A DNA stretch of 64,000 nucleotides, from positions 704,001 to 768,000 of the forward strand of contig CBDBLV010000004.1 in assembly GCA_965207225.1 (NCBI GenBank), read 5' to 3'. The notes under the pieces are model-generated. The model searched no databases. It saw nothing but the letters and a program-made list of their open reading frames with translations, and had not been told where the DNA came from. This DNA is from Dehalococcoidia bacterium (GTDB lineage: Bacteria > Chloroflexota > Dehalococcoidia > Plut-88900). This document shows, piece after piece, positions 4,612 to 32,043 of this stretch (position 1 is its first letter; each line of letters opens with the position of its first letter). Both the position numbers and the translations under genes were made by a program.

Positions 4612-4988
4612 GCCTGCCTTCTTCAGTCTGTCTCGCGTCAGTTGCGCATCTCCTCACACCTTCCGAACGCGGTTCGACAGTACAGAGTGTAACGTCATGG
4701 CGTGGCTGGCCCCATCGGTAATTCGGTTGGCCTGGGCTCGAGGGTTCGATAGGTTCCCGCGTTCGTGGAAATGACGAGCGGTTCCGTCTCCCGGCTACGC
4801 TCCTGGGCGGCCGCTGCTTTGTCAGTATCTGGTTGGGACACGTCTGCTCCTTTCCCGGGGCACTCTACCTTCAGTCAGGGAGCTCACACCACCTCAAATC
4901 TCTCGGGTTTTCCTATCCCCTCGGGTGTCCCATTATCGCTGACGGTCTACAGATTGGCTACAGGTCCAGAACGAGGGTAAGTGTGAAA

Positions 4989-5039
4989 GTTCTTGATTTT
5001 GTCAAGTCTGGTGGGCCTATTTTGACGGTAGACAGAACC
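4989..5039 (+). other. attL of ICE1 (hybrid site; core TGGTGG 5009-5014)
   Basis: GTTCTTGATTTTGTCAAGTC-TGGTGG-GCCTATTTTGACGGTAGACAGAACC; both arms recur, inverted, at 31668-31719. Confidence 0.9.
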
Positions 5040-5183
5040 GTCTTCGAATTGAGGCTGGGCAGTCTGTAAACCCACCGAAACGATGTTGCGTGGTCTCTCT
5101 TGGGCTGCCTACCAGCGTTGCGCCTATCGTGGCTTCCAGCATATTCAATGGGGCGCACGCATTCACAATCCCAGCATTTTGCG

Positions 5184-5606
5184 TCACTCGTGACTGCCTC
5201 TCAGCAGGGCGACGAATCCAGCCTGCTCAAAGTCTCGGTCGTAGGCGAGCGCCTCAGTCAGGTCACGTTCTTCCATTATGAGGAAGCTCGCGCAGTCCGT
5301 TAGGCTCCAGGTCTGATCCTGGCGTGCCTCGTATCGTCCCACCGCTGTCCAAAACTGGTCCTCAGTAAGCCAGACAACCTCAATGCTTGGTCTGCCACGA
5401 AGACTCTTCGCCCATTCAGTTGCACGCTGTCGCATGTACTCGCCACGGGTCGATGCGAAATTGAGTACCTCGACCACAACCATATGGGTCGTGACCAGTT
5501 GGTCCGCGATGGATTCTGAGCTCAAGTCGAGTGCGCGGGCGTGAAGGTCGTCTCGGTTGTCGAGTAGTGCGATCCAATATCCACTGTCAGCGAACACCAC
5601 ACGCAT
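5184..5606 (-). CDS. vapC: PIN-domain toxin (VapC family)
   Basis: VFADSG...VVEV...SLTDCAS...YDRDF acidic PIN motifs. Confidence 0.9.
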   Translation of the reverse strand: MRVVFADSGYWIALLDNRDDLHARALDLSSESIADQLVTTHMVVVEVLNFASTRGEYMRQRATEWAKSLRGRPSIEVVWLTEDQFWTAVGRYEARQDQTWSLTDCASFLIMEERDLTEALAYDRDFEQAGFVALLRGSHE

Positions 5607-5890
5607 TACGGTTCCTTCTTCGGATGACCGTACATGTAGTGTTTGTAGTTGACAGAGCCATCGGTGGGTCGGTCTCGTCCGTCATCCGGGTACTTCTCAA
5701 TGAGGTGCCTGGCCAACATTGACATGTCTCCGATAGCATTCGCGCCCTTCGCCGCGGCTTGAACGGGAATCTCCTCAATCACCAGGGCCACTTCCGCTCC
5801 CTCGGCAATGTCCAAGGGCTCCAGGGGCGTGAGAACGCCGTTGGAGTACTTGGCCTTCACGTTCGCAATCATGACGCTCCCCTCTGACAT
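5606..5890 (-). CDS. AF2212/DUF104-like antitoxin
   Basis: VKAKYSNGVLTPLEPLDIAEG motif; stop overlaps vapC start. Confidence 0.8.
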   Translation of the reverse strand: MSEGSVMIANVKAKYSNGVLTPLEPLDIAEGAEVALVIEEIPVQAAAKGANAIGDMSMLARHLIEKYPDDGRDRPTDGSVNYKHYMYGHPKKEP

Positions 5891-6010
5891 GGCTACGGCC
5901 TTCGGGCAACTCTCAGCGTCCTATGTGTGCTCAAGACCGTTCTGCCCTCATCATACTCCTGATGGCTGCTGATCATCAATGGAAACGCTGCCTTTTCTTG
6001 GTCGGCGCTA

Positions 6011-6040
6011 TTGACAACATCCGCTTCGGTGGTTTAAGGT
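6011..6040 (+). promoter_or_regulatory. Possible sigma70 promoter for the adhesin genes
   Basis: TTGACA-N18-TAAGGT in an AT-richer intergenic stretch. Confidence 0.35.
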
Positions 6041-6364
6041 AATAGGTGGATAGTAATGATACTATATCTCAATTATCAACGTAATGGTGGCCTTGCCCAC
6101 TGTCCGTGTCGAGACCGTACCTCGTCAATTGGACGCATACGAAGCTCAATACCAATGATCCGAACGTACTCCACGGTTGGCGACGACGGGAACAATGATA
6201 CTAAGACTCAACACGATGGCGGAAACGATAGCTGACGATTGTGATATCAGTCGTCCCGCACGGAGCAAAACCAGTGTAGAAACACGCACCCGTCTTGGGC
6301 GCGAGGCAAAGAACAACGAACCAACTCGATCTAGATTTCGAAAGCAAGGAAGCTAGGAGAATCG

Positions 6365-7999
6365 ATGAACAGCTTTACCAACGCATCAATGCCCCTGAAA
6401 CTCTTCGGCGTCGTCTTGGCGCTGGCCCTAGTAGCGGTGGCCGCCCTGTTGGTCACCCCCACCTCGGCGCAAAGCCCGGACAACACCTACGACGACCCGC
6501 AGCCTTGTGGGTTCGGCCAAGGCGCATCCACTGCATTCCAGGCCGAACCGCACGAGAAGACCACCGGCCACTACGCACTCTTTGACGCCTACTGGGAGGA
6601 TACGGGGCCGGATCAGGCGCAGACCCCAGGGCTGGACCCTGACCAAACCCCTGACAACACCGGCATCCTGCACACCAACGAGTGCCCGCCGCTGTTGACC
6701 ACCGAAACGCAAGACCTCCAAACCGTAACCACCCTGACCGACTCCGGCGTCGACATCGACGAGCTCATAATCCACGTCGAGAACTCGCGTCAGGCGACTG
6801 TGGTGGAGGGCAATCCGGATGATTTCAGCACCCACCATTTGCGTTTGGACCAGTACCCAGGGGTTCGTGACCACGCCAATGTTGGTGAAAAGGTCTGGTG
6901 GCTGCGGCTGGACGACCCCGACCTCAGCGGGGACCAGAAATCCGACCTCACCCTCGGATTCTCGACGCACCGATTCGACAAGAAGTACTGGACCAAGGTT
7001 AGCTACGAGTTCAGGCTCTTGCGCAACCCCGGCATTGCCCCGGGCGAGCATCCCCACCTCCTCGCCTACCGGGCGCGCCAGTCGGGTGTGCCCGGCGCGA
7101 CCAAGGTCTGGGACAGCGCTGAGGCAGGCATCGCATCCATGGAGATGGCGCCCGGCGAACTCATCAATGACCTACAGTGGGTCTTCACCAAGCCCGGGAC
7201 CTACGAAATATCTGCTCAACCCGTGGGGTACGTGCGCAACAAAAACCCTCACGCTGAAGGCGATGAGGAGTACGACGCGAACTGGAAGGCGATCAGTGCA
7301 AACGTCACCGAGGCCGGCGAGGTGAAAAAGTACGTCATCCACGTGGGGCCTCTCGTCGAGGTGGAGCCGCCACTATTGGGCGTCAGCCGCAGCGTGCCGG
7401 AAAACTCCCCGGCCGGGACCAACGTCGGCGACCCGTTCCTGGTCTACTCGGAAGCGAGTGATCTGGGGTACAGCCTCTCCGGCGTCGGCCACGAAAACTT
7501 CGTAGCAACGGCCACGACCGACGCGGACCCCTACGGCGTCCAAATCAAGGTGGCCGAGGGGGCCAGCCTGGACTACGAGACCAAGGCCACCTATGACCTC
7601 ACCTTGGGAGTGACAAACAAGATCGACCACGAGAGCAATCCCGACCCCACCGTAGACGACACCCTGGTGGTGCGGATCAGTTTGGACGACGTCGCCCCCA
7701 CCGTGAGCCTTGCAGTCGATAATGCCAGCCCGGCGGTGGGTGACACGGTGACCTTTAGGGCGGTGTTCCAACACTTCGAAGAAGTGGGAGAGTATCTGTA
7801 TGATTTCGACAGTCTGTCGAATTCCGATACCCTCACTGGGCGGGTTACCACCAACAACGCCATTGTGTACACCACCACCCGAAATAGCGCCCTAACGGAA
7901 ACTTTCACCTTCAGTGCCACTTACGACGTTGATGATGATGGCTCGAACCGACGTGTCATTCACGCCGAGAATGTCACCGTCACCTGGGGCAACCCGTAG
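6365..7999 (+). CDS. Secreted surface protein with TIGR03769/choice-of-anchor-M-like and cadherin-like domains
   Basis: Signal peptide; WVFTKPGTY motif; VPENSPAGTNVG...LDYETKATYDL cadherin motif. Confidence 0.8.
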   Translation: MNSFTNASMPLKLFGVVLALALVAVAALLVTPTSAQSPDNTYDDPQPCGFGQGASTAFQAEPHEKTTGHYALFDAYWEDTGPDQAQTPGLDPDQTPDNTGILHTNECPPLLTTETQDLQTVTTLTDSGVDIDELIIHVENSRQATVVEGNPDDFSTHHLRLDQYPGVRDHANVGEKVWWLRLDDPDLSGDQKSDLTLGFSTHRFDKKYWTKVSYEFRLLRNPGIAPGEHPHLLAYRARQSGVPGATKVWDSAEAGIASMEMAPGELINDLQWVFTKPGTYEISAQPVGYVRNKNPHAEGDEEYDANWKAISANVTEAGEVKKYVIHVGPLVEVEPPLLGVSRSVPENSPAGTNVGDPFLVYSEASDLGYSLSGVGHENFVATATTDADPYGVQIKVAEGASLDYETKATYDLTLGVTNKIDHESNPDPTVDDTLVVRISLDDVAPTVSLAVDNASPAVGDTVTFRAVFQHFEEVGEYLYDFDSLSNSDTLTGRVTTNNAIVYTTTRNSALTETFTFSATYDVDDDGSNRRVIHAENVTVTWGNP

Positions 8000-8005
8000 T
8001 ATCGG

Positions 8006-11000
8006 ATGGCGGTTGCTGTGGCCCTTAGGCTTGTAACGCTGTGCCTGTTTGCAGCGCTGGTCGCCATCGCGACCAGCGCTGCCGAGCCCGCTTTTGCTGC
8101 CCCCTCGCCCCCGGCGAGCAGCATCTCCCTGGACAGTCTGCCGAAGCCAAGAGGAACCTCAAATGTCTGGTGGGAGCTCTTCGTGCGCAACGATCCAGTC
8201 CCCGGTCACCCACCGGCGGCGGCTTATGATGTAGTCGTTCGCATTACCGCCACGGCCAATGGTCAGGAGTACAAGCAGCACACAACTGTTAGCAACCCTT
8301 CATCCGGGTACATTGACCGGGACCGTGGAGTGTGGGTCATCCCCTTTATACCACCGGGGGGCAGCGCTGACGTGATCATTCAGCCCGCAGCATTCTTTCC
8401 TCGATTCAATCAGGATACACCAGTCCGCCTGCACGCTGAATTGGTTTCACATCGTTACCTCGCCAGCGAAGCAGGCAGCCAAGGGAGTATTGAAACCGAG
8501 GATTGGTACATTAGGGCTGCGAATGCTTATCTTTTTGCATGGCCAGGTGCAGAAGTAGGCGTAAGAGTTCGCAGCCTTAACAACAGGGTTCCAGCGTTAG
8601 GTACGCAGACCACGTTTGATGTTCGTGCGATTAATGTACCCTACAATGACCCAGACCCAAGAGTTCTAATAGTACCAAGCAAGCAGATTGGCAAAGTATG
8701 GGATGTGAAGATCAAGATCGATCTTTCGCCGGGGTTGTCTTTAGCTCCCGGATGGACTGCGCCGACCGGCACATCCTTTGACGCCGAAAGCGGTATCTGG
8801 AATGTGGGGTTAATTAGTGGCACAAATACCGGTACGACAATGTCTTTGCCGGTACTCCTCGCCGCGGATAACGTTCCCTTGGAGCAGCGGTGCCTGACGG
8901 CGACGGTGGTGAGCTCCACACCCGACTTCGAGCTGGACCCGGGGGTGCTGGTGAACGACTTCTCCACCGAGTGCCTGGGCGAAGATCCGATATTGAACGA
9001 GGGCGATATTGCTGTTTTCAAGTACGTTTCCTGCGTTGGCCGCACATCTTACCCCTGCACCAGCGATGACACACTGGAATTGGTGGCAAAGCATGAAGCG
9101 GCATTCTGGCAGCCTGAAGATGTCATTGTCCAAGTCAGGGACGTCCAGGGAAGGGTTGAGGCGGGATGGAGCACCGGCAAGACGGCAAGGCACCTTGCTT
9201 CTGTTCCTTCGATCCCTGGTGTTGGTGTCATCTTCGAAGTCATTGATAGCGGGTACAACGCATACACTTTTGCAATTAGCGACGTGGTGCCAAAACAACG
9301 GCCCGGCAAATTTACAGTTGTGGCCGGCAACCAAGGAAACATTACCATCTTGGACGCCGACACAATGCTGTCCGCGGGACCGTACAACCTTAATGAACCA
9401 ATTCCCGCATTAGTAGTTTTCGGCACTTTGGGCACATATAAGGTAAAGATAACCGTTGGGGCTACCAAGTCGGGGACGGCGTACACCGACAGCGGCGTCT
9501 ACACCTTCCACGTGGGGCCGATAGCGGAGCTTGCGGTGCGGGACGGCGGTCGCAGCCCACTGGCGGCGCCGGACCAGCAAGCCTACACCATCCTCGCGGC
9601 CAACAACGGACCAGACGCGGCCTCGGCTGTGGTGGTAACCCTCACAGGCGTACCCCAGGGCGCGGAGGCCATCGTCAGTGGCAGCACCAAGCGCGTGGAC
9701 GACGAAGACGTCAGCGGCAGCGATGGAAGGTACGCGCAGGGCGACTGCGTAGACGGATTCTGCGAAGCCACCTGGACCATCGGAAAGATGTCCGTTTCCT
9801 CTGGCAGGACCTCCATCGGCAAGATGCCCTTCCCCACGCTGACCCTGATCGCCCCGGACGGCGCGTCCACGTCGGGCATTGAGGCCAGCATCGAAAGCAC
9901 CGAGCCCTACTCGGTTACCATCGACGGCACGGTCCACTCCACCGCCTACTTCGACTACATCGATGAGAACAACAGCGCTCACATCGCTGCCCGGGCCGGA
10001 GCCGGCGGGCCAGTGCCGGGAACGCCACAGGACCTGCAAGCGCAGTTCTACACCGTTCCATTCACGACCGCCCTCGTGTGGTGGACCGAGCTTGAGTCGG
10101 TGAACAGCTTCCCTGTGTCCCGCTACGAGGTGTTCACGGAGCGGCCGAATGGTGGAGCCTGCCAGGCGCCGAGTACGGACCAAGCGGGAGAGCGGCTCAC
10201 GGGAACGACGTACGCGGACCGCCGTGCGAAGGAGGGCGAGCTCACGTGCTACTACGTGCGGGCAGTGAATACTCATAAAGTTCCCGGCTACTGGGCGGGG
10301 CCGGTGATGGCGACCGGCGACAGCCCGGACCAGCCGCGGCTGTCGGTGCAGGGAGGCGATCCAGTCGACGAGGGCGACGCCGCCCAATTCACGGTCAGCG
10401 CCTCCCCGGCCCCCGCCGCCGGAGACAGTCTCACCTTTGGCTACACGGTGATCCAGCGTGGCGACTACGTAGCCGACAGAGAGTTGGGCCAGAAGCATGC
10501 AACCATAGGCAACAGCGGCCGCGCCACCATAACCGTCCTCACCGTGGGGAACGATACCGACGACGCCGACGGGGAGATATTCGTCACCCTGAACAACGGC
10601 GAGGGCTACACGGCGTCTTCGGACCGGTCGGCCAGTGTCGAGGTGAGGGACAACGACAATCCCGAGGTGTCCTTCGCCGACGACCCGGCCACGGCCACCG
10701 TGAGCGAGGGAGATGGCGGTTACGACGTGGTGGTCAACCTGGTTCCGGCGCCCCACGCCGCCACCACCATCAGGTACCAGATCGGGGGCGTCGCCGAGGC
10801 CGGCGAGGATTTCACGATCGGCGGCCTGAGCAACGGCTTTGGGTCGGTCTGGGTTGGACCCGGCTCGTCCAGCGTGAACATCCCCGTGCGGCTGATCAAC
10901 GACCGGGAGAGCGAGCAGGAGGATTTCCTGGACATCTACCTGCGCGCGGGAGAGAACTACGACGTGGGAACTCCGTCCCGCTACACGCTGACCATCACCG

Positions 11001-12808
11001 ACAACGACGGCCCCGGGGCGCAGTTCGCCCGGACCGATAGCGAGGTTGGCGAGTCCGACGGGAGCACGACTGTGACCGTCAACCTGGTCCCGGCGCCCAC
11101 CGAGGACGTGACCATAAACTACACCCTTGGCGGCGGCACGGCTCAGAGCGGCGACTACAGCATCGAAGGCTTAACCGGCTCTTCCGGGTCGGTGACGGTC
11201 TCCGCCGGGATCAACAGCGTCGGCATCCCGGTAACCATCAACCCCGACGGCGACTCCGAGCCCGACGAGACGGTGGTGCTGACGCTGGGGAACGGCTCGG
11301 ACTACACCGTCGGGACGACTCGGACGCACACGCTGACCATCCTGGACGACGACCGGCCGCGGGCCAGCTTCGCCTCCGATGCATCCAGCATCATGGAGGC
11401 GGACACCGAGCACCCCGTGAGGGTCAACCTCGACCCTGTGCCCACAGACAACCTGACCCTGAGCTACGGCTTGGCAGGCAGTACGGCCACGCGCAACCGG
11501 GACTACCGGGCGGATGGCACGGTGCAGGTGAACGCAGGCAATGACCACGTTCACATCCCGGTGGAGATCTTCCACAACGGCGAAAGCGAGCCGGACGAGA
11601 CTGTGGTTCTGACGCTGCGGGTCGGCTCGGGAAACAACGTGGGCGAAGAAAGCGTGCATACGCTGACCATCACGGACAACAACCTGCCTATGGTCGCCTT
11701 TGAGACGGCGGAGGGCAGCGTGAGTGAGACGGGCCGCACGCACCGGGCGGTCATCACCCTGGACCCGGCGCCCCACGAGGATCTCACCATCGGCTACACC
11801 GTTGGCGGCACGTCCACGGAGGGAGTGCACGGCCAGCACGGCCCAGGCGACGACTTCACCATCCGTGATTCAGGCACGGTCACGGTCCCGCCCGGACAGA
11901 CTCAGGCCTTCGTGCCGATAACCATCCTCAACGACTCGGACGCCGAGGGAGATGAGACTCTGACGCTGACGTTGACCGGCGGCGACGGCTACGCCCTCGA
12001 TACGTCGGCGAACATCTACGAGCTGACCATCCTGGACGACGACGCGCCGGAGGTATCCTTCACGGCGGCCTCGGGCGAGCCGGGCGAGGGCGCCGGCATG
12101 CACGTGGTGCGGGTCAGGCTGGACGGGCAGACGGACAATCCGGTGACAGTGGGCGTCAGCGTCAGCTTCCCGCCCAATATCGGCTCTGACAGCCCCGCTG
12201 ACCACAGCGCCATTCCCGGCAGCGTTACGATTCCGGCGGGTATGCTTGAAACCGAGATCGAGATAACCATCACCGACGACCCTGACAACGAGGCCGACGA
12301 GGTGGTCGTCCTGACTCTGGAGCCCGGCACGGGGTACTCCCTGTCGCAGGACAAGCCCACGGAGTACACGCTGACCATCGTGGACAACGACGCGGACGAG
12401 AACACCCCGGTGGCCAGTCGCGACCATCCCCATGCCCACGGGCAGGGCTCGACACATTTTGAAGTCTACGAAGGCCATACGCGGATCCCGACGTGGTACG
12501 TGACCGGGAACTTCGCGGGGGATGTGATCTTCCAGTACGTCGGCGGAACGGCGACCCTGGACGAGGACTTCCGCTTGTTCCGCATACAGGGTCAGATCGA
12601 GAAGGTGGGCGACACCTTCACGGTCCGGTCCCTTGACTCCCCCCACGACTCCGACAGGGAAGCGGGCCTCCGTTGGGCCAGGTTCACGTTCGACCCGATA
12701 CGAGACCAGGAGCGGGAAGGCGGCGAGACGGTTATCCTCCGGGTGCTGAACGGCCCGGGCTACACCGTCGAGGAGCCCACCGAGCTCACCATCACCATCA
12801 TTGACTAG
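8006..12808 (+). CDS. Large adhesin-like protein with DUF11, FN3-like and multiple Calx-beta repeats
   Basis: Signal peptide; NNGPDAA (DUF11); repeated D.ESEPDETVVLTL...HTLTILDDD units. Confidence 0.88.
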   Translation: MAVAVALRLVTLCLFAALVAIATSAAEPAFAAPSPPASSISLDSLPKPRGTSNVWWELFVRNDPVPGHPPAAAYDVVVRITATANGQEYKQHTTVSNPSSGYIDRDRGVWVIPFIPPGGSADVIIQPAAFFPRFNQDTPVRLHAELVSHRYLASEAGSQGSIETEDWYIRAANAYLFAWPGAEVGVRVRSLNNRVPALGTQTTFDVRAINVPYNDPDPRVLIVPSKQIGKVWDVKIKIDLSPGLSLAPGWTAPTGTSFDAESGIWNVGLISGTNTGTTMSLPVLLAADNVPLEQRCLTATVVSSTPDFELDPGVLVNDFSTECLGEDPILNEGDIAVFKYVSCVGRTSYPCTSDDTLELVAKHEAAFWQPEDVIVQVRDVQGRVEAGWSTGKTARHLASVPSIPGVGVIFEVIDSGYNAYTFAISDVVPKQRPGKFTVVAGNQGNITILDADTMLSAGPYNLNEPIPALVVFGTLGTYKVKITVGATKSGTAYTDSGVYTFHVGPIAELAVRDGGRSPLAAPDQQAYTILAANNGPDAASAVVVTLTGVPQGAEAIVSGSTKRVDDEDVSGSDGRYAQGDCVDGFCEATWTIGKMSVSSGRTSIGKMPFPTLTLIAPDGASTSGIEASIESTEPYSVTIDGTVHSTAYFDYIDENNSAHIAARAGAGGPVPGTPQDLQAQFYTVPFTTALVWWTELESVNSFPVSRYEVFTERPNGGACQAPSTDQAGERLTGTTYADRRAKEGELTCYYVRAVNTHKVPGYWAGPVMATGDSPDQPRLSVQGGDPVDEGDAAQFTVSASPAPAAGDSLTFGYTVIQRGDYVADRELGQKHATIGNSGRATITVLTVGNDTDDADGEIFVTLNNGEGYTASSDRSASVEVRDNDNPEVSFADDPATATVSEGDGGYDVVVNLVPAPHAATTIRYQIGGVAEAGEDFTIGGLSNGFGSVWVGPGSSSVNIPVRLINDRESEQEDFLDIYLRAGENYDVGTPSRYTLTITDNDGPGAQFARTDSEVGESDGSTTVTVNLVPAPTEDVTINYTLGGGTAQSGDYSIEGLTGSSGSVTVSAGINSVGIPVTINPDGDSEPDETVVLTLGNGSDYTVGTTRTHTLTILDDDRPRASFASDASSIMEADTEHPVRVNLDPVPTDNLTLSYGLAGSTATRNRDYRADGTVQVNAGNDHVHIPVEIFHNGESEPDETVVLTLRVGSGNNVGEESVHTLTITDNNLPMVAFETAEGSVSETGRTHRAVITLDPAPHEDLTIGYTVGGTSTEGVHGQHGPGDDFTIRDSGTVTVPPGQTQAFVPITILNDSDAEGDETLTLTLTGGDGYALDTSANIYELTILDDDAPEVSFTAASGEPGEGAGMHVVRVRLDGQTDNPVTVGVSVSFPPNIGSDSPADHSAIPGSVTIPAGMLETEIEITITDDPDNEADEVVVLTLEPGTGYSLSQDKPTEYTLTIVDNDADENTPVASRDHPHAHGQGSTHFEVYEGHTRIPTWYVTGNFAGDVIFQYVGGTATLDEDFRLFRIQGQIEKVGDTFTVRSLDSPHDSDREAGLRWARFTFDPIRDQEREGGETVILRVLNGPGYTVEEPTELTITIID

Positions 12809-12939
12809 AAGCAACCGGCCGGCGTCCCCACGGGGGCCATGGGCTGAAGGCGGCAGTTCGGCTGCCGACCATTGGACGCCAACGCGCCGGTGCCGATGCG
12901 GACTTGGTGAAACGCAAAGAGAGCGGGATACATGCCGGT

Positions 12940-12978
12940 AGAGAGGGAGGCCATCCAATTCGGATAGCCTCCCTCTCT
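12940..12978. terminator. Hairpin between convergent genes
   Basis: AGAGAGGGAGGC...GCCTCCCTCTCT inverted repeat. Confidence 0.65.
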
Positions 12979-12983
12979 TGTAC

Positions 12984-14141: not shown

Positions 14142-14157
14142 GTCGCTTCTCCTTTCA

Positions 14158-14245
14158 ATGAAGAAGCGGGACGGCCTACCACCCCCGTGGGGTGGAGACA
14201 GTCCCGCTCGAATTGGTTGTCCCGAATGCCGGGACTGTCTCCGTG
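14158..14245 (-). promoter_or_regulatory. Structured leader (attenuator-like), copy 1
   Basis: Mutually exclusive stems GAGACAGUCCCG/CGGGACUGUCUC and GCGGGAC/GUCCCGC-UUCUUC; conserved at 41793-41866. Confidence 0.6.
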
Positions 14246-14313
14246 GGTTTTGTGTTGTCGTTGTGGCCGATGGCCGGCTGCGGCGTCCTCCGTGTCGCTG
14301 TACTGGGCAGGCT

Positions 14314-14367
14314 CTACGTGGGGAAGCCGTGTGCGGGCAATGTCAGTGCCCGTCGTGCGTTGGGCAT
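14314..14367 (-). CDS. Putative 17-aa leader peptide MPNARRALTLPAHGFPT
   Basis: AGGAGG-N4-ATG; stop codon about 70 nt before the structured leader. Confidence 0.35.
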   Translation of the reverse strand: MPNARRALTLPAHGFPT

Positions 14368-14600
14368 AGTTCCTCCTGGGTGGGTGAGTGGATGGGTGGT
14401 GCGGGACTGGGTCCCGCAAGCAAGGGGCGGAGCGGTCAGGCTCCGGCGTGGCAAACGATGTGGAGAGTCGGAACGAGGGGAGCGCTAGCTAGCGGCGCAC
14501 TCGGCCCAAGCAAGCAGGTGTAAGAAGGCAGCGCGTCCTCGCCCGGGTTGCAAGAACAACCGCGCCGCCGATGCGACCGAGGAGGGTGCGGAGAGCCGGG

Positions 14601-15104: not shown

Positions 15105-15232
15105 CGTGCACCTCCTACGTGCCTGTGTGTTGCCTTGAATCCGTTACGCCCGCTTTCGGGCAAAGAAGTAGGGGCCGCCCTCGGAGAGAGCGACCCCTGC
15201 GTGTTGTGATGGGTTGTGAGAGCCCGAAGCCG

Positions 15233-19298: not shown

Positions 19299-19453
19299 TC
19301 TCAAGGACAACGACGACGAAATCACAGAGGAGCGGCCCAATCCGTGCCGACCGAACCCGCAACGGAGGCAGAGCGATGTGCATGTGACGGAGCTGACGGA
19401 CACCGACCGAGAGAGACGAGCGGAAGGCTCGAAGAACGAGAGGAGAAAAACAG

Positions 19454-19735: not shown

Positions 19736-19766
19736 GAGCACGTGAGGAAGGAAAGGGGGGAAAAGA

Positions 19767-21784: not shown

Positions 21785-21805
21785 TGAGAAAAGGAAGCGA
21801 ACGAA

Positions 21806-24100: not shown

Positions 24101-24115
24101 GGAGGAGTAACAGAA

Positions 24116-26647
24116 ATGAAACAGAACCCGATACGCAAACTATTTGGAAGCGACGACAAGACCCCGGCGCTGCTTGCGGTGACGCCGCCGAGGACGGGCG
24201 AGCGGACGTTGCTGGGCGTGGAGAACCTCCTCCAGTCCATCGCGGTGCCTGAGCCCTTCTCCCTGGAGCTTGCCGGGGACATGGACGGCGTGACGCTGAT
24301 GGCCCGGTGCATCGACGACCGGGTGGTACGCGGCCAGATCTCCGCCCACTACCCCCAGGCCAGGATAGAGAAGGTGGACCCAAACAACGATCCCTTGCGC
24401 CTGGGAGACGGCGAGCAGGCGTGGTCGATGACGCTCAGGGCCGACGGCCCCGAGTATGTCCCCCTGCGCACCTTCCGCGACGACGACCTCCTCGACCCCG
24501 GCTCCGACCCCCTCATCGCCCTCATGGGCGCTCTGTCGTCCCTCTACGAGGGGGAGCGGATTGTGGCTCAACTCAAGCTGAACTCCCTCGGTCCCGACTG
24601 GTCGCAGCACCATCTGGAAAAGGCCCACAAACGGCCCGGCCAGGAGCAGCGGGAGCCCTCCTACACCTACCAGACCAAGCCCCTCCAGATGGACGGGGTG
24701 ACCATGGCCGTGCTCGGCGTCGGCGCTCTCGCCGCCCTCCAGGGCTACCTGTGGGTGCAGGACGGGGAGACGTGGAAAGCCGTGCTGCTGGGCATGGGCG
24801 TTGCCCTGGGCCTTACCGCTGGCGGCTGGGCATGGCACCGCTTCAAGAAAGCCCGCAATCGGGTCGATGACCCGTTGCTCATCAGGGAGAAGGTCTCCCG
24901 CATCGCCTTCGACGCAGAGATACAGGTGACGGCGATCATGCCGGACGACACGGGGCGCGAGCGGGCCGAGGAGCTCCTCAGAAGGGTTGCCGCCGCCTAC
25001 CGGCACTTCGACAACCCGGCAGGGGCGAGGTTCAAGGTGAGCAAGGTAAGGCCCGTCGCTCCCGCCCCGGAGAACCTGCATCCCACAGGCCCCGGCCTGT
25101 TCGGCAGGCGCAGCGTCCTGGGGGTGCGGGAGGCCGCCTGCCTCTGGCACCCGCCGGGAGCGGGGAACGAGACGCCGTTGGTGGAGCGGTCCGGCGCACG
25201 GGCGCTCAGCCCGTCGGCGAAGGGAGTCAGGGGCGGCGCGCTGGTGGGCGACACCACGGCGGGTACCAAGAGGGAGATCAGATTCCCCGACGACCTGCTG
25301 CGCCGTCACCACCTCTACGTGGCCCGCACCCGCATGGGCAAGTCCACGCTGATGCACCACGTGGTCGTTCACAAGATGCGGGAGAAGGCGGCGGGCAGGG
25401 ACGAAGACGCCATCGTCGTCATAGACCCCCACACCGACCTGGTGGCGGGCATCCTCGAACACGTCCCGGAGGAGATAGCCGACAGGGTGAGGCTGATAGA
25501 CCTGTCGGACGCGAGCCGTTCCCCCGGCGTCAATCTGCTGGACACCCGCATATTCGCAGACCGGGACCGCACCGCCGACTCGGTGGTGCGGGTGGCCAAG
25601 GGCCTCTGGGACCAGTGGGGGCCGAGGATGCAATCGATCCTGGAACAGACCGTCAAGACGCTGCACGAGGCCAACGAGCAGATGGAGGCCGAGCAGCAGT
25701 ACACCATCCTCGACGGCCTGAAGCTGCTCTCGGACGATGAGTTCGCCAAGCAGGTGCGCAAGAGGGTCTCCGACCCCTACCTGCTGGAGTGGTGGGCCAG
25801 GGACTTCGGCAAGTGGGGCCGCCAGTACAAGGCGGAGGCCCTGGCCCCCGTCCAGACCCGTCTCTCCTACTACGCATCGTCCAAGCGGGCCAGGGCCATC
25901 CTGGGACAGCGCCGCTCCACCATCGACCTGAGAAGGACCATCCACGACGGCGGCGTGCTGCTGGTCTCCACCTCCCAGGGGGTCGTGGGCAGGGACGTGG
26001 CCGCCCTGGTGGGCGCGTCGCTCCTGAACCTGGTGGACGCCGTGATACGGGAGCAGGGAAGTCTATCTCTCAGGGAACGTCGCGGCGCGCTGGTCGTCGT
26101 GGACGAGATGCAGTCCATGCCCGGCGTGGACTACGAGTCGATGCTCAGCGAGCTTGGGAAGTTCGGGGCGTCCTTCATCCTCGCCACCCAGAGCCTGGCA
26201 AAGCTGGACGACCTCTCCCGCACCATGCGGGACACCATCCTCGCCAACGTGGGGTGCCTCGCCGTCTTCCAGGTGGCCGGCTCAGACGCCAGGACCCTGG
26301 TGTGGGAGCTTGGCAAGGACCGGGTGTCCGAGGACGACATCGTGTCCCTGCCCGTGCACCACTGCTACGTCCGCGCCACCGTGGGCACCGAGCGGATGCC
26401 CGCCTTCTCGATGGAGGTCAGGAAGCCTGAGGAAGGAGACCCATCGGTCGCCGACCGCATACGTGCAGCTACGCAAGGCTACACCGTCTCGGCCCGCCAG
26501 GGAGACTACGCCGACGCCGAGGGCCACGGGAAGGTGGACGAATTTCACAAAGGCGTCGAGGCATTGGAGCAGGCCGAACGGGAGGAGAACGACGAGCAGG
26601 CGACCGAGAACCACACCGACGAAGAGGACGAGGAGGTCGGAGAATGA
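24116..26647 (+). CDS. virD4: Type IV coupling protein (VirD4/TraD-like)
   Basis: Two TM segments; ARTRMGKST; VIDPH; VVVDEMQ; LATQS. Confidence 0.88.
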   Translation: MKQNPIRKLFGSDDKTPALLAVTPPRTGERTLLGVENLLQSIAVPEPFSLELAGDMDGVTLMARCIDDRVVRGQISAHYPQARIEKVDPNNDPLRLGDGEQAWSMTLRADGPEYVPLRTFRDDDLLDPGSDPLIALMGALSSLYEGERIVAQLKLNSLGPDWSQHHLEKAHKRPGQEQREPSYTYQTKPLQMDGVTMAVLGVGALAALQGYLWVQDGETWKAVLLGMGVALGLTAGGWAWHRFKKARNRVDDPLLIREKVSRIAFDAEIQVTAIMPDDTGRERAEELLRRVAAAYRHFDNPAGARFKVSKVRPVAPAPENLHPTGPGLFGRRSVLGVREAACLWHPPGAGNETPLVERSGARALSPSAKGVRGGALVGDTTAGTKREIRFPDDLLRRHHLYVARTRMGKSTLMHHVVVHKMREKAAGRDEDAIVVIDPHTDLVAGILEHVPEEIADRVRLIDLSDASRSPGVNLLDTRIFADRDRTADSVVRVAKGLWDQWGPRMQSILEQTVKTLHEANEQMEAEQQYTILDGLKLLSDDEFAKQVRKRVSDPYLLEWWARDFGKWGRQYKAEALAPVQTRLSYYASSKRARAILGQRRSTIDLRRTIHDGGVLLVSTSQGVVGRDVAALVGASLLNLVDAVIREQGSLSLRERRGALVVVDEMQSMPGVDYESMLSELGKFGASFILATQSLAKLDDLSRTMRDTILANVGCLAVFQVAGSDARTLVWELGKDRVSEDDIVSLPVHHCYVRATVGTERMPAFSMEVRKPEEGDPSVADRIRAATQGYTVSARQGDYADAEGHGKVDEFHKGVEALEQAEREENDEQATENHTDEEDEEVGE

Positions 26648-28305
26648 GACCCGCGGGACTGGAAGCCCACCTCCTCCGCACCCTGGCCGACATGCCCTAC
26701 CTCAATCGCCGGGAGATGGTCCCGGTCACGGGCCGGTCCAAGGGCGCGGTCCACGAGGCCGTGGAGAGACTTCAGGCAGACGGCCTCTGCGGCTCCGTGC
26801 TCCACGCCGTCGATCCCTTTCCACCCTCCCGCAGGTTCCACCTCACCGGGGCGGGGCTGCGCATGCTTGCAGATGAGGACGGGATGTCGCTTGACGACCT
26901 GGTGCGTACCCACCCCGTCTCCGCCGAGTGGCGGCGAAGCCTGATGGAGCGCATGGACGCCCTGGATTCCATCTACCGCGTCGCATCTCTCGCTTCCGAC
27001 GTTGCCTACCCCCTGCGCTTCCGCTGGTACCGCTCATCCAAGCTGGACGCGGGTATAGAACTTCCCGACGGCAGGACCGTCGGAATCGTCAGGCAGGGAC
27101 TCACCGCCGACCGCTCGGTCTTCGCCCAGCGCCTCTGGCGACTGAAGGACGAACCCATGCCCGGAGTCGTCCTCGTCCTCACGATGGACGCCGTCCGTCT
27201 CAGGCACGCCCGCAGGATGCTCTCGACGACCGGCGTACCGGCGTTGCTCGCCATCGAAGGCGAGGCGGTCCTGGCCGGAGCCGACGACCACATCTGGACC
27301 CCGGCCCAGGTCCACGCAGCCGTGGGCCTGCGCTATTCGTTGGACAGGACCGACCCCGGCGGCGCGTTTCCGGGGGAGCCGCAGCCCGGACTGGCGTCGG
27401 TCCCCGCAGACCTGCCCGTCATGGGAACGGTAGCCGACATGGCCGACCACATGCTGCCCGTGACGCTCAGACCCGCCGAGAAGCGCGCCCTCGACCTGGT
27501 ATTCGACTGGCCCTGGATCGCCCTGGGGGACCTCGCCGGTCTGTTGGAAGTATCGCCCCAGCGGGCTTCCCAGCTGGTCAATCCCTTGGAGGGCTTCAGC
27601 CTCGTCGTCAGGCCCCGCGAAGCGGAGGGACGGCTGGCCCTCACCGACCGGGGACTGGCCCTCCTCGCCCGCAGGGACAGGACATCGGTGGCGGCGGCGA
27701 GGAGGAGATTGAGCGTCGCCCCGGAGGACGCCAAAGGGCCTTTCGAGTGGCGCAACCTCACCGGCAGCAGGAGCCGCCAGCTTCTCAGGAACATCGAGCA
27801 CACCGAGGCCGTCCACGTCTTTCTGTCCGCGCTTGCGGCCCAGGCCCGGCACCTGGGCTGGGAGATAGCGCAGCTCGACCCGCCCAGGAGGGCGTCCCGC
27901 CACTTCCGCCACGACGAACGGTTGCGCGCCGTCTACCCCGACGCCTTCGGCGTCCTGCGCAGGGCCGAAGAGACGTGGGCCTTCTTCCTGGAGTGGGAGC
28001 GAAGGGCCGTTCGGCCCTCGACGATGGCGACGCGGCTCGCGCCCTATCTGCGCTACTACTCGTCCCAAAGGCCCATGGACGACCACGGGGCCAGACCCGC
28101 CGTTCTCATCGTCTTCGACGACGACATCGCCGCCACCCACTTCCTGCGCGTGGCGAGGGAGCGGATGCAGGCCAGCCGGGTCAGGGTCCCCCTGTGGGTC
28201 TCCCACAAAGAAGCCATCGACGCCCTGGGGCCGCTGGGACGCGCCTGGCGCACCCCGGACACCGCATGGGAGCCGCCCCAGTCCCTGCCGACGGAAGTGC
28301 AATAG
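26644..28305 (+). CDS. Replication-relaxation (Replic_Relax) family relaxase
   Basis: EHT..VH, YPDAFG, FFLEWER, YLRY motifs; coupled to virD4. Confidence 0.85.
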   Translation: MRPAGLEAHLLRTLADMPYLNRREMVPVTGRSKGAVHEAVERLQADGLCGSVLHAVDPFPPSRRFHLTGAGLRMLADEDGMSLDDLVRTHPVSAEWRRSLMERMDALDSIYRVASLASDVAYPLRFRWYRSSKLDAGIELPDGRTVGIVRQGLTADRSVFAQRLWRLKDEPMPGVVLVLTMDAVRLRHARRMLSTTGVPALLAIEGEAVLAGADDHIWTPAQVHAAVGLRYSLDRTDPGGAFPGEPQPGLASVPADLPVMGTVADMADHMLPVTLRPAEKRALDLVFDWPWIALGDLAGLLEVSPQRASQLVNPLEGFSLVVRPREAEGRLALTDRGLALLARRDRTSVAAARRRLSVAPEDAKGPFEWRNLTGSRSRQLLRNIEHTEAVHVFLSALAAQARHLGWEIAQLDPPRRASRHFRHDERLRAVYPDAFGVLRRAEETWAFFLEWERRAVRPSTMATRLAPYLRYYSSQRPMDDHGARPAVLIVFDDDIAATHFLRVARERMQASRVRVPLWVSHKEAIDALGPLGRAWRTPDTAWEPPQSLPTEVQ

Positions 28306-28627
28306 ACGACGCAGGGAGCGGCGCGAAAACTCCCGCTCAATACCCGATAGGAGATGGAAAGCCGATGCGTTCACCGGATAACGATATAGCAAGAGGCCCC
28401 CGGAGGAGCGGAGGACGGAGCGCCGTCCGGCTCGACGCGGCGGCTCTGGGAGACGGCTCACTTCGGTGATCACCTCCCGGAACCGGCCCGCCGGGGTCGA
28501 TACAGACAGACCCGGTCCCATGTCGAAGTCGGCGCGTGGGGAGCGACCGCCCTCCGGTCGCATCCGCCGCCGGATGCACATGGCCTTGGGAACAACAACC
28601 CAAAGCTTTACGACATGGAGGATAGAC

Positions 28628-28918
28628 ATGACCAACATCGATCACATCGACGGATGGAGCGAGATGGAGCCCCTTCAGGGCGCCGACATGCCCGAGGACT
28701 TCCCCCAGCGGCTCGTGCGCCTCAAGGAGGCCAGCGGCCTCTCCTGGCGCGGCCTGTGCAGGGTCACCGGCATCGACTACAAGCTGCTGCGAAGGTGGCT
28801 CAAGGGCTGGGCGCCCAGCGGAGGCTCCATGCTCACCCTGGTCATCTTCGCCAACCGCATCGGATGCCTTCCGATCCTCCTGGGGGAGGAGCTACGGATG
28901 ACCCACTTCAGGAGCTAG
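28628..28918 (+). CDS. XRE-family HTH regulator
   Basis: RLKEASGLSWRGLCRVTGI...RWLKG; GGAGG RBS. Confidence 0.8.
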   Translation: MTNIDHIDGWSEMEPLQGADMPEDFPQRLVRLKEASGLSWRGLCRVTGIDYKLLRRWLKGWAPSGGSMLTLVIFANRIGCLPILLGEELRMTHFRS

Positions 28919-29084
28919 CCGGCACCCCCCGCCGGCGCCCTAACCGGCGCATCGGCGGCGCGGCGGGGTAGGACACCACAACGCCGCCGGGCGCTCGCAC
29001 CCATCCGTCCGTGCCCGGCGGCCACCCAATACACCTGTAACGAGAGGCCAGCGGCCCAACGAACCGCCGCTGAGATTAGGCAAC

Positions 29085-29303
29085 ATGAAAGACACCAATA
29101 GAGAAGATACGAGGAACCGGCAAAAGAAGAGGCTGGGGAGGGATGCTCCCGAGTCATCCTCCGACAGGCCGATGGAGTCCTATACTCCTCAGCAGCGAAG
29201 GACGATACGCAAGGGGCTGCGCATCCTGGCCAAGGTCGCCGTCCGCGCCCACATGCGCAGGAACGCGGCTCACTCAGAGGATGACGGCGAGGGCAGGCGG
29301 TGA
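29085..29303 (+). CDS. Small basic hypothetical protein
   Basis: 72-aa ORF with amphipathic helix GLRILAKVAVRAH, upstream of the recombinase. Confidence 0.6.
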   Translation: MKDTNREDTRNRQKKRLGRDAPESSSDRPMESYTPQQRRTIRKGLRILAKVAVRAHMRRNAAHSEDDGEGRR

Positions 29304-29399
29304 ACGTCCCGCCCAACCTTGTCCCCGGCAGACTCGTTGGAGATGGCCGCGTGAAGCTAGCATCTTGGCATAGCACGAAAGCCGTGCTATTATGTACTT

Positions 29400-29693
29400 A
29401 TGATTGTCTCATTCAGAGACGGCGGTACAGAGGACATCTTCAACGGGCAATCCACTCAAGCGGCCCTGCGGGCATGTCCCATGCCGATATGGGGAGTGGC
29501 TCATCGAAAGCTTGACCAGATCGATTCCGCCTCCGTTCTGGGAGACCTCAGAATACCTCCCGGCAACCGCCTGGAACGGCTGGCCGGAGATCGAAGCGGG
29601 CAACACGGTATTCGCGTCAACGACAGGTATCGAATCTGCTTCACGTGGACACCTGCCGGACCCGCCGACGTCGAAATCACCGACTATCACTGA
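29400..29693 (+). CDS. higB: HigB/RelE-family toxin
   Basis: DLRIPPGNRLERLAGDRSGQHGIRVNDRYRICF. Confidence 0.93.
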   Translation: MIVSFRDGGTEDIFNGQSTQAALRACPMPIWGVAHRKLDQIDSASVLGDLRIPPGNRLERLAGDRSGQHGIRVNDRYRICFTWTPAGPADVEITDYH

Positions 29694-29701
29694 AGAGGAG
29701 A

Positions 29702-30067
29702 ATGAGCATGGTACGCATTCCCACCGATCGAGAGCCTACGCATCCGGGCGAGATGCTTCTGACGGAGTTCCTGCTGCCCCTCGGAATGACTCAGCGCGAC
29801 CTGTCCAATGCCATTCACGTGCCCTATCAGAGGGTCAACGAAGTCGTCCGAGGGAAGCGGGGGGTCACGCCAAGCACCGCCCTGAGGCTCTCTAGGTTCT
29901 TCGGCACTTCGCCCGGCTTTTGGATGAACCTGCAACTCCGTTGGGACCTCTACCACGCCGAGCGTTCCGAGGCTGAACAGATCGAGGGCATCCTTCCGCG
30001 TGAAATGGTCAGCGCGCTTGGGGAAGACACGGGTTCGATGACGACGATGCCGGGTGTTGCAGGCTAG
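29702..30067 (+). CDS. higA: HigA antitoxin
   Basis: PTHPGEML..EFL.P...TALRLSRFFGTS..FWMNLQ. Confidence 0.93.
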   Translation: MSMVRIPTDREPTHPGEMLLTEFLLPLGMTQRDLSNAIHVPYQRVNEVVRGKRGVTPSTALRLSRFFGTSPGFWMNLQLRWDLYHAERSEAEQIEGILPREMVSALGEDTGSMTTMPGVAG

Positions 30068-30111
30068 TAGTGGCCCACGGGAACGACAGGAAACAGGAGG
30101 AGGACTCACAG

Positions 30112-32043
30112 ATGAACAATAGAAGCGACTACACCCCCGTGGCCCTCTACGCCAGGGTCTCCAGCGACAGACAGGACGTGGACCTGTCCGTGGCCGCACA
30201 GTTGCGGGCGCTCAGGGAATACGCCCAGAAGAACGACTACGTGGTCGTCCGCGAGTACGTGGACGAGGCCGAGAGCGGGCGCGTCGCCGACCGCCCGGAG
30301 TTCCGCAAGATGATCGACGAGGTCGCCAAGCCCGAGGCCCCGTTTAGAAAAATCCTTGTGTGGAAATTTAGTAGATTCACCAGAAAGCGCGAGCACGCCG
30401 TCGCCTTCAAGTCCATGCTCAGGCGAAAGGGCGTCCGCGTCGTCTCCATCACCGAGCAGGCCGACGACACCGCCACCGGCAGGCTCCTTGAGGGCATCAT
30501 CGAGTCCGTCGATGAGTTTTACTCGGAAAATCTTGCGGAAGAGGTTCGCCGTGGGATGCGGGAGGCCGCTTCCAGAGGCTTCTGGGTCGCCAGCCGGACG
30601 CCCTACGGCTACAACCGCGTCATGGTGCAGGACGGAGCCAAGAAGCGGCCCACACTGGAGATCGACCCTGACACTGCTCCCGTCGTCAAGCGCATCTTCG
30701 ACATGGCCGAGTCGGCCACCGGGATGACCGAAATCACCCGCACACTCAACGGCGAGGGCATCGCCAGCGCCACCGGCAAGCTCTGGTCCAAGAACGGCGT
30801 CCACTTCATCCTCAGAAACGAGGTCTACACGGGCACGCTGCTCTGGGGCACTACAGGGAAGGTCAAGTCCGACCCCGTACGCATAGAGAAGGCGTTCCCC
30901 GCCGTCGTCTCCAAGGCCCAATTCAACCGCGTCAAGCGGCTCATGCGCTCCCGCGCCCCCAAAAGGAACCACCCCCGCAGGGTGGGAAGCTCCTACCTGC
31001 TCAGCGGGCTGGTCAGGTGCAAGTCCTGCAACAGGGCGCTCTCAGGCCAGGACGCCAAGAGCGGCCAGTTCGCCTACTACGTCTGCCAGTCCATCATGAA
31101 GCGGGGCAAGAACGCTTGCACGACCCCCAGGCTCAACGCACGACGCTTCGAGGAGATGGTGGTGGAGAGGATACGGGAGAACGTCCTCACCGAGTCCAAC
31201 ATCACCGAACTGGTCAAGATAGTGGACGAGGAGATGGATGGGGTCGCCGCCGAGCAGCGGCAGAAGCTGGAGACCATCGAGGCCGAGCTTGATGAGGTCA
31301 AGCGCAAGCTGGGCCGCGTCTGGCACCTGGTGGAGAACACCGACCTCGACATGGCCGACGCCTCGGAACGCATCAGGGAGCACCGGGAGCGTCAACAGCG
31401 CCTTGAGGACTCGGCGGCCGAGGCCAGGACCATCCTCTCCCAGCGCAGGGAGGTGCTGGACGACGTGGAGACCATCGCGGCCTATGCCCAGGACATGAGC
31501 GAGTTCCTGAAGGAGAGCGAACTGACCGAGCGCAGGGCCTTCATCGAGTCTTTCGTCAAGGAGATCGTCGTCATGCCCGACAACGCCCTCCTCCGGTACA
31601 CCATCCCCATGCCTCAGGATGGACCGGTAGGAGGGAGAAACGCCGAGGAGATGGCCCTGAACGGCTCGGTTCTGTCTACCGTCAAAAATGGTGGACTGGA
31701 CTTGACGAAATCAAGAACCGAGGCCGATTCCTTCGTCACGCCGTCGCTGGGCATGGGGACCGTGTACGTCAGGGTCGCCTCGTCTCCGACCACCTCGATA
31801 CTCTCAACGAAGTTGCGGATGAGCGCCTTGCGCTCGGGGATCGTCCCTTCCTTCAGGAACTCCCTGAAGTCCGCCACGTACTCCCGAATCACGTCGGTTG
31901 TGGGCAGTTCCACCCTGCGCTGCTCAAGTCGGGTCTCCGCGTCCTCCCGCGCAGCCTCAAGCTGCTCCTCGCGGTGCCTTAGAGACATGATGCGGGGCGA
32001 CAGCGCCTCAAGGGTCAGATCGCTCGTCTCGATGGCCTCGTAG
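30112..32043 (+). CDS. Large serine recombinase 1 (ICE1 integrase); conserved part ends at attR, then reads through
   Basis: YARVSS catalytic motif, recombinase domain, CxxC...YVC...C zinc ribbon, coiled coil. Confidence 0.95.
   Translation: MNNRSDYTPVALYARVSSDRQDVDLSVAAQLRALREYAQKNDYVVVREYVDEAESGRVADRPEFRKMIDEVAKPEAPFRKILVWKFSRFTRKREHAVAFKSMLRRKGVRVVSITEQADDTATGRLLEGIIESVDEFYSENLAEEVRRGMREAASRGFWVASRTPYGYNRVMVQDGAKKRPTLEIDPDTAPVVKRIFDMAESATGMTEITRTLNGEGIASATGKLWSKNGVHFILRNEVYTGTLLWGTTGKVKSDPVRIEKAFPAVVSKAQFNRVKRLMRSRAPKRNHPRRVGSSYLLSGLVRCKSCNRALSGQDAKSGQFAYYVCQSIMKRGKNACTTPRLNARRFEEMVVERIRENVLTESNITELVKIVDEEMDGVAAEQRQKLETIEAELDEVKRKLGRVWHLVENTDLDMADASERIREHRERQQRLEDSAAEARTILSQRREVLDDVETIAAYAQDMSEFLKESELTERRAFIESFVKEIVVMPDNALLRYTIPMPQDGPVGGRNAEEMALNGSVLSTVKNGGLDLTKSRTEADSFVTPSLGMGTVYVRVASSPTTSILSTKLRMSALRSGIVPSFRNSLKSATYSRITSVVGSSTLRCSSRVSASSRAASSCSSRCLRDMMRGDSASRVRSLVSMAS

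Follow-up and report, generated by a model that had tools for sequence, protein, structure and literature searches.

The closest described counterpart of the system reported here is DsiB of the Dehalococcoides ssrA islands. We analyzed a 64,000-nucleotide stretch of a Dehalococcoidia genome (hereafter the window), in which an integrative and conjugative element (ICE) of 26.7 kb carries its attachment (att) site inside the 3' end of its own serine-integrase gene, rec1, and lies against rec2, the integrase gene of a second element family. According to McMurdie et al. (2011), DsiB is a 540-residue serine recombinase encoded at the island edge; the 3' end of dsiB always overlaps attL, its stop codon lies outside the island, the islands occur in tandem arrays, and the gene was suggested to have its full function only in the circular form or next to a neighboring island (PMC3146451). 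Both a state-dependent integrase C-terminus and tandem stacking were already proposed in 2011 for the DsiB islands, and the switch, stability and disabling ideas in a preliminary description of the window, which had named ssrA islands as a case of an att site overlapping an integrase 3' end, closely resemble a suggestion published for dsiB (PMC3146451). Compared with that account, rec1 is like dsiB in encoding a serine recombinase of about 540 residues at the element edge, convergent with an RNA gene, in a 3' end that overlaps att with the stop codon outside the element (we checked this here and found it to hold), in occurring in tandem arrays at one target, and in its host class, Dehalococcoidia, judged by arm matches among at least 76 loci; the published primer for the ssrA repeat starts with TGGTGG.

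Other features differ from the DsiB islands. The targets here are many tRNA genes and the ends of other elements, not the 3' end of ssrA, and the single transfer-messenger RNA gene of this genome (contig C1, 198772-199125) adjoins none of the listed recombinase genes. Only 6 bp are shared at the site, versus a 20-bp direct repeat. No DsiA-like small recombinase was found among the Pfam matches of the genes neighboring rec1, and the combination of DsiA with syntenic RecF, ParB and Mom genes is missing. VirB4-like and coupling-protein genes are present, unlike in the ssrA islands, which were judged non-conjugative; nor does the published account of the DsiB islands describe conserved tails or a second family with opposite polarity. 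The link to DsiB consists of the shared host class, plus CcrB as the best similarity, and the two systems were compared by description, not by sequence.

For rec1 and rec2 alike, the top match in NCBIfam is CcrB of the staphylococcal cassette chromosome (SCC), likewise a large serine recombinase that moves a chromosomal cassette; the scores (143 and 173 bits) are nonetheless far under the cut-off of 900, and no CcrA partner is found here. The insertion site of SCC is rlmH, and att is not known to lie within the recombinase gene in that system. In SSV1-type archaeal integrases, which are tyrosine recombinases, attP does lie inside the gene, which is split on integration and intact on the free circle only. 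Integration would alter the integrase gene itself in both systems, but in the present one the exchange is limited to a short C-terminal tail and leaves the catalytic part intact. Finally, ICEs and mobilizable elements are known to accrete (e.g., SGI1 tandems and phage-ICE tandems), with related elements stacking at one site and mobilizable elements lying beside conjugative ones. Such accretion mostly involves tyrosine integrases that keep a full core in the hybrid sites, in contrast to the serine integrases here, whose inverted cores would produce head-to-head stacking.

An ICE bounded by two 6-bp cores

The preliminary description had placed TGGTGG cores in direct orientation at 5009 and 31689, and both are indeed there, on the forward strand at 5009-5014 and 31689-31694, with a spacing of 26,680 bp. 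The left and right junctions are identical over this 6-bp core only, and both are hybrids in their present state, each pairing two different 20-bp arms, with a dyad symmetry of just 13/25 and 14/25. We exchanged the junction halves by script, which reproduced the two palindromes that had been claimed for the circle joint and the empty site: each of the two resulting sites is dyad-symmetric at 21 of 25 positions (19/20 when the inner 5 bp are excluded). The symmetry center of both lies between core bases 5 and 6, at the common GG, so the rebuilt sites have the imperfect dyad symmetry about a central dinucleotide that is typical of serine-integrase att sites. The crossover would accordingly be expected at this GG, i.e., at 5013-5014 and 31693-31694. 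As a chance control, we scored 2,138 genomic TGGTGG sites, among which the best single site reached 14/25, and 2,000,000 random site pairs, of which 6 gave two recombinant sites scoring at least 20; all six were other junctions of the same element families.

Comparison of element copies leads to the same boundaries. The genome holds four left and four right ends of this ICE type, and in all of them identity to the window or its flanks stops exactly at the core; because all copies diverge there, the ends are defined by copy comparison as well as by symmetry. The left end (5015-5069, plus strand) comprises the P1' arm (5020-5039) and a coding stretch of the conserved rec1-family tail with its stop at 5067-5069, while the right end carries the P1 arm (31668-31688). 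Between these ends lie a VirB4-like conjugal transfer ATPase gene (21806-24100, plus strand; Pfam TraG P-loop, AAA_10 and TraC), a coupling-protein-like gene (24116-26647, plus strand) and a MarR and Replic_Relax relaxase-like gene (26644-28305, plus strand), homologs of which also occur in rec2-type units. The latter two are barely above the Pfam cut-offs (TrwB_AAD_bind, 25.8 bits against 20.5, with TraG-D_C just under its cut-off; Replic_Relax, 25.7 bits against 25.3), and the NCBIfam match of the ATPase to the CD1110-family VirB4-like model (232 bits) is below the curated cut-off of 325. Integrase, VirB4-like, coupling-protein-like and relaxase-like genes within defined ends are the gene content of an ICE, and the window thus contains an intact conjugative-type element at 5015-31688, as had been proposed. 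Other copies, at 91-100% identity, lie on four contigs, and three contig ends fall within ICE copies; several copies at different sites imply that the element would have been mobile in the past. Public-run contigs compared over 2000-9000, a stretch with one of the two junctions, showed no circle or empty-site joint.

Conserved integrase tails that span the att site

The gene rec1 (30070-31694, plus strand) encodes a large serine recombinase with 541 codons up to the core, and rec2 (31695-33287, minus strand), with its P2 arm at 31699-31719, encodes one of a second family with 531 codons up to the core. Both show the domains of large serine recombinases (Pfam PF00239 Resolvase, PF07508 Recombinase and PF13408 Zn_ribbon_recom, all above cut-off). 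At present the two open reading frames (ORFs) run antisense into each other's gene, ending at 32043 and 31614 and yielding proteins of 657 and 557 residues, with 116 and 25 extra residues, respectively. Scripted joining of the frames across the core instead gives a rec1 product of 559 residues (stop at 5067-5069) and a rec2 product of 549 residues (stop at 4958-4960, minus strand), so that the rebuilt stops at 5069 and 4958 and the antisense extensions are all as first reported. In other words, attP lies within the last codons of the ICE's own recombinase gene, and precise excision would give both genes different C-termini, which turn out to be the conserved ones of their families.

Lack of tail conservation among homologs had been named beforehand as a refuting observation; conservation was found in both families, and the tail idea survives. 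The tails in the window are PILTVDRTVFELRLGSL (5016-5069) and DLTKSRTFTLTLVLDL (minus strand, 5008-4958), and both fit the patterns of their families. Among 76 distinct rec2-type tails from other genomes, 67 stop at exactly codon 18, and their pattern, PPDL[TIM]KSRTF.L.F.L.[LV], contains alternating hydrophobic residues (F.L.F.L). Beyond the arm, codon position 2 is the least variable (0.63 bits, versus 1.08 and 1.02 for the other two positions), and immediately past the stop the variability rises to about 1.9 bits at all positions. The ICE-type tails behave similarly: 13 of 16 from other genomes stop at codon 18-19, the pattern is ..T[VI]..T[IV]FE[ML]W[LM]G.L, and the entropies by codon position are 0.66, 0.14 and 0.85 bits, with the second again lowest. 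By these signatures both tails are conserved coding sequence, and integration replaces a conserved integrase C-terminus. Only an intact site, as found on the circle or where two elements join in tandem, encodes this conserved C-terminus. The exchange of tails is real and extends through the families, though it was anticipated in print.

What the exchange would do is a matter on which two readings compete. The tails might be conserved as DNA only, as an extended att site or the site of an accessory factor, in which case the swap would have no effect and the overlap would be a neutral by-product of a compact element end. The first nine tail codons coincide with the palindromic arm and are necessarily conserved as DNA, the catalytic, recombinase and zinc-ribbon domains all finish well upstream of the core according to Pfam, and McMurdie et al. 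thought an extension past att unlikely to be functional (PMC3146451). We nevertheless hold it unlikely that DNA-level constraint is the whole explanation: the conservation beyond the arm has a codon pattern with position 2 the least variable, hydrophobic residues alternate, 67 of the 76 tails have their stop at codon 18, and conservation is gone directly after it. The tail may itself matter for activity. A stronger proposal, which we put forward as speculation and consider rather less probable still, is that the att-spanning tail acts as an integration-state switch: the tail-bearing, integrating enzyme would be made from the circle or a tandem only, integrated copies would make tail-swapped proteins of altered activity or stability, and families of opposite polarity would remove the tails of each other's resident integrases, a mutual stripping that would amount to competition or locking. 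The predicted fold of a natural tail-bearing rec2-type protein (L117:1441-3054, minus strand; alignment of 67 rows) had a mean predicted local distance difference test score (pLDDT) of 45.7, with the tail below 50, and is uninformative on the tail.

Two integrase families with inverted cores across the genome

We then considered all related genes in the genome, a metagenome-assembled genome (MAG) of 4.0 Mb in 5 contigs with an estimated contamination of 8.3%. It contains 41 recombinase matches, about 40 of them large serine recombinase genes: four rec1 genes (98-100% nucleotide identity), nine rec1b genes (about 78% amino acid identity to rec1), several more distant relatives and 12 full-length rec2-type genes; the rec2 of the window has 12 paralogs at 81-92% amino acid identity. 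All full-length copies end at one core, which reads TGGTGG in rec1-type and CCACCA in rec2-type sense. Seven rec1-family genes each overlap the 3' end of a different tRNA gene (Ile, Ala, Lys, two Val, Gln and Met); the core there comprises the last pair of the acceptor stem, the discriminator base and CCA. The genome has seven convergent pairs of a rec1-type and a rec2-type gene, arranged as at the right junction of the window, and six tail-to-tail junctions of the kind found at 5009; three further ones involve a third ICE family. Nine of 11 rec2-type tail ends adjoin ICE tails and none a tRNA gene, and no intact palindrome of either family is present in this genome.

The rec2-type gene is located at one end of units of 10-21 kb, which we term E2. 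These have a relaxase-like gene, and when five units were compared in translation none matched the VirB4-like or coupling-protein genes of the ICE, a content which suggests that E2 may be mobilizable rather than conjugative elements. The array on contig C5 consists of tRNA-Met followed by ICE, ICE, E2, ICE and E2, whereas contig C3 shows strict ICE/E2 alternation, seven times. We considered the divergence of neighboring copies as a record of arrival order and rejected it, the rec1b genes (87-93% pairwise identity) being as diverged as the rec2 genes (84-99%).

Some further features of these arrays deserve mention. With about 40 genes in 4.0 Mb, the genome carries an unusually heavy load of one integrase clade, and the arrays of stacked elements extend from 80 kb to more than 100 kb (C3:1-106880 and C5:1911928-1990313). 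One rec2-type gene (C5:1988760-1990334) has a damaged core, CCAGTG for CCACCA, and an open frame of 1072 codons, and may represent either a fusion or a junction in decay. A rec1-like gene truncated at its N-terminus (C2:150888-152093; 71% identity) combines a rec1-type arm with a core in CCACCA sense and a tail of rec2 type, apparently as a hybrid of the ends of both families.

Relatives in other genomes

The arm sequences were found at at least 76 loci, all of which, among the matches listed, belong to Dehalococcoidia, Chloroflexota or SAR202-labeled MAGs. We sampled 77 rec2-type tail ends in other Dehalococcoidia genomes and determined what lies across the core: 16 face the 3' end of a tRNA, 20 an ICE-type tail, 5 the tail of a third family, 6 another recombinase gene in antisense, 1 a rec2-type gene arm and 29 something else. 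The tail ends at tRNA 3' ends indicate that rec2-type units use tRNA genes too, with the tail side toward the tRNA. The single intact rec2-type palindrome is the joint of two E2 in tandem in the genome G043.

Public homologs were classed by the sequence following the core, using text patterns of our own, so that the assignments are approximate. Among 120 listed rec2 homologs, 53 read antisense into a convergent recombinase gene, 29 end in another family's sense tail, 7 in the tail of their own family and 31 fall into other classes. Convergent recombinase pairs overlapping at the shared motif, which it had been suggested should be sought in related genomes, are therefore common (7 here and 53 of the 120 listed). 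For 120 listed rec1 homologs, at least 40 read antisense into a tRNA T-arm and 17 into a rec2-type gene; by hand count about 17 end in the tail of another ICE family (ICE-ICE tandems), and 2 in their own tail, with 19 lacking a motif match and 41 classed as "other". Going by the position of their cores, the serine integrases here use many tRNA genes. At the loci defined by arm patterns, 6 of 9 rec1 relatives adjoin tRNA-Val, Met, Ile or Ala, with 21 of 30 loci unclassified, and close rec1 relatives in the genomes of other species sit at tRNA-Val(cac). A metagenome scan for rec1-type gene ends returned three matches, too few for counting.

The units flanking the ICE

On the left, the ICE is joined to a recombinase-less unit of 1.85 kb, "mini-E2" (3162-5014, minus strand), consisting of a 5' relaxase-like piece (about 3346-3162), a 334-residue ORF (3607-4611), the rec2-type tail (5008-4958) and the P2' arm (4989-5008). 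Exactly this block is present at 97-98% identity in two complete genomes, G041 and G042, with different neighbors on either side; the G041 copy has its tail end immediately next to tRNA-Val(tac). The block is also matched, at about 98% identity, by contigs from three independent sponge-metagenome runs; in these runs the ICE part has little or no cover and the flank is covered, which we read only as the flank existing elsewhere. Its inner edge is a TGGTGG motif within the truncated relaxase-like gene, and the unit looks like a non-autonomous element that would be moved in trans. The tail to the left of 5009 belongs to this separate unit and has no demonstrable link to a once-continuous rec2 at this locus.

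Further left, an arm search allowing 2 mismatches identified the end of another rec2-type unit (3136-3161), with a P2'-type arm and a degenerate core TGGTAG, joined to the truncated relaxase-like gene of mini-E2. Homology breaks at 3161/3162: the left side is homologous to C3:46158-46279 and the right side to the relaxase-like gene. A joint of 3154 to 4985 that appeared in public-run contigs when 2000-9000 was compared is explained by another genomic junction with the same arm variant. Ends of rec2-type units are joined at or near a TGGTGGCGGC motif both at 3136-3165 in the window and near 996860 in G043, and in the window TGGTGGCGGC lies near the start of the sister unit's relaxase-like gene; this motif may be a secondary target of the rec2-type integrase.

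To the right, upstream of rec2 lie a trypsin-like ORF and a 165-residue ORF. The rest of the rec2-bearing unit (33288-35483, minus strand) includes the region of that 165-residue ORF (34178-34675), common to other units, and a C-terminal Replic_Relax fragment (34926-35483), and the unit is homologous to other E2 units as far as about 35440. Neither its far end nor a tRNA fragment was found up to 64000, and a search of 12 genomes of the family gave no counterpart of the flank at 33288-37500. We considered whether the rec2 unit and mini-E2 are halves of one unit, since a single relaxase-like gene is cut in both, but the two pieces leave a gap of about 0.77 kb and the mini-unit exists alone elsewhere with the same edge.

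How the arrangement may have arisen

We regard the stacking of two element families of opposite polarity as the best explanation of the window, a preference we hold with moderate confidence. The attP site of rec1 would be a 52-bp imperfect palindrome straddling its last 18 or so codons, with the crossover at the GG of TGGTGG, which is complementary to the CCACCA that ends a tRNA. Integration would cut the translated tail off the integrase and let its ORF continue into whatever lies beyond the core. The rec2 family would be built alike, with its core inverted relative to the gene, and because of this inversion E2 would insert in the opposite orientation. Both families would chiefly use tRNA gene 3' ends, and newcomers would re-use the tRNA-side half-site, recombining with a site composed of the tRNA half and the arm of the older element; that they can do so is indicated by the ICE-ICE tandems, the E2-E2 tandems and the C5 array, and such re-use has been described for the tandem ssrA islands of Dehalococcoides (PMC3146451). 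An E2 arriving beside an ICE would create convergent overlapping integrase genes, and an ICE arriving beside an E2 would create a tail-to-tail junction, so that one stacking rule yields every junction class because the families carry the core in opposite sense. The window would hold one junction of each kind, with the rec2 remnant on the right and mini-E2 on the left. The order of arrival given here is inferred. The spacing of a T-loop motif supports the distinction between the two kinds of half-site: GGTTC lies 20 bp from the presumed crossover in all tRNA half-sites (7/7 here and 16/16 elsewhere) and 26 bp from the center in 4 of 4 element arms, and this fits the usual difference in serine integrases, whose attP half-sites are longer than those of attB. 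We also entertained the idea that the rec2 gene end mimics a tRNA end, and dropped it, since its GGTTC spacing is 26 bp and not 20 bp.

The preliminary description had favored a different history, in which the ICE entered a pre-existing rec2-type palindrome; on the present map this would be the joint of the rec2 unit and the mini-unit. On this view rec1 would accept a sister attP-like site as attB, and the families would habitually target each other. A complete ICE between two degraded or small pieces is what such an insertion would leave behind; intact rec2-type palindromes do exist chromosomally as E2-E2 joints, with 7 of the 120 listed rec2 homologs carrying that tail; and the arms of both families share GGTTCT and GTCAA at the same positions. 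Several observations count for this history and at the same time weigh against stacking: random arrival would seldom give the alternation on C3 (1 of 35 orders on our own count), rec2-type tail ends in this genome adjoin ICE tails (9/11) and never a tRNA (0/11), and 8 of the 10 closest listed rec1 homologs (at least 93% identity) adjoin rec2-type genes of different alleles, several of the eight coming from closely related assemblies. Other findings sit uneasily with stacking as well. The array lacks a visible anchor, with no tRNA gene or fragment in the window or on the contig beyond position 558,243; G043 likewise shows pairs and tandems in a stretch of 260 kb that holds no tRNA gene; under stacking the rec2 unit should have arrived last, yet it is a remnant of some 3.8 kb without a far end within 30 kb, while the ICE is complete; and both excision and the crossover point are predictions from sequence. 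Insertion into a sister site leaves the ICE-ICE tandems and the tRNA-adjacent rec2-type ends unexplained, however, so that stacking would be needed anyway. Moreover, the rec2 site has the attP-type 26-bp spacing on both arms, and large serine integrases are not known to catalyze attP-by-attP reactions; close rec1 relatives in other species sit at tRNA-Val(cac); and the rebuilt site owes its symmetry to the conservation of arms across the family rather than to history. The computed symmetry of the supposed empty site therefore stands, but its former existence here does not follow, as any rec2-type gene end combined with any rec2-type tail end gives a palindrome. Use of each other's att as a target is not established, because stacking would give all junction classes; we keep direct use of the sister site as a rival that is unlikely and less probable than stacking. 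A third possibility is that the two junctions stem from separate events, either homologous recombination among copies that are 84-100% identical or a repeat mis-join in the MAG. The near-identical ICE copies on four contigs with three contig ends inside them, the assembly in 5 contigs with its estimated contamination, and an unanchored array next to a truncated unit would all be compatible with this. Yet the ICE is colinear and complete over 26,680 bp with proper ends on both sides, contigs of the source run agree over 4516-5016 and 5030-6027, though none crosses the junction, and the same gene-gene arrangement is seen in other assemblies, which makes separate events the least probable of these histories. 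Overall, the original observation is confirmed and its first interpretation partly supported, with mutual targeting unproven.

Cargo and accessory genes

Just inside the left end, the ICE carries a toxin-antitoxin-like pair of a PIN-domain and an AF2212-like gene (5184-5890, minus strand; Pfam), and just inside the right end a HigB-like toxin gene and an HTH_3 gene (29400-30067, plus strand; Pfam) lie directly upstream of rec1, so that such pairs are found inside both ends. The cargo at 6365-12808 (plus strand) encodes a 544-residue protein and a 1600-residue, surface-protein-like protein with five Calx-beta repeats (Pfam, NCBIfam). The entire right half of the window is accessory DNA, including restriction-type nucleases (44343-47185) and an insertion sequence (IS)-type transposase gene (DDE_Tnp_IS240) beside a fused N6/N4 DNA methylase-HNH nuclease gene (57754-59835). 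Short tandem repeats with GTATTGGTGGGC at 52626-52781 are unrelated to the att cores; they lie in the region of a 295-residue ORF (52084-52971, minus strand) with a weak Ig-like match.

Significance

According to a 2014 database paper, no targeting of tRNA genes was known for serine recombinases (PMC4383910). Within the literature searched, we found no later report of serine integrases located at tRNA genes and none of convergent serine-integrase genes that overlap. Relative to the DsiB islands (PMC3146451), the present case differs in its targets at tRNA genes and element ends, its 6-bp core, its lack of a DsiA-like partner, its conjugation genes, and the inverted second family together with the demonstrable conservation of the tails. 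Serine integrases are prized as simple, directional tools for genome engineering, and a central question about them is what sets their direction. In the system described here an entire clade, which has thousands of homologs in public data, keeps att inside the integrase gene; if the tail affects activity, this would be a control of directionality that needs no separate factor. In sponge-associated Dehalococcoidia genomes, the two families with inverted cores build long alternating arrays, which bears on how these bacteria gain accessory DNA.

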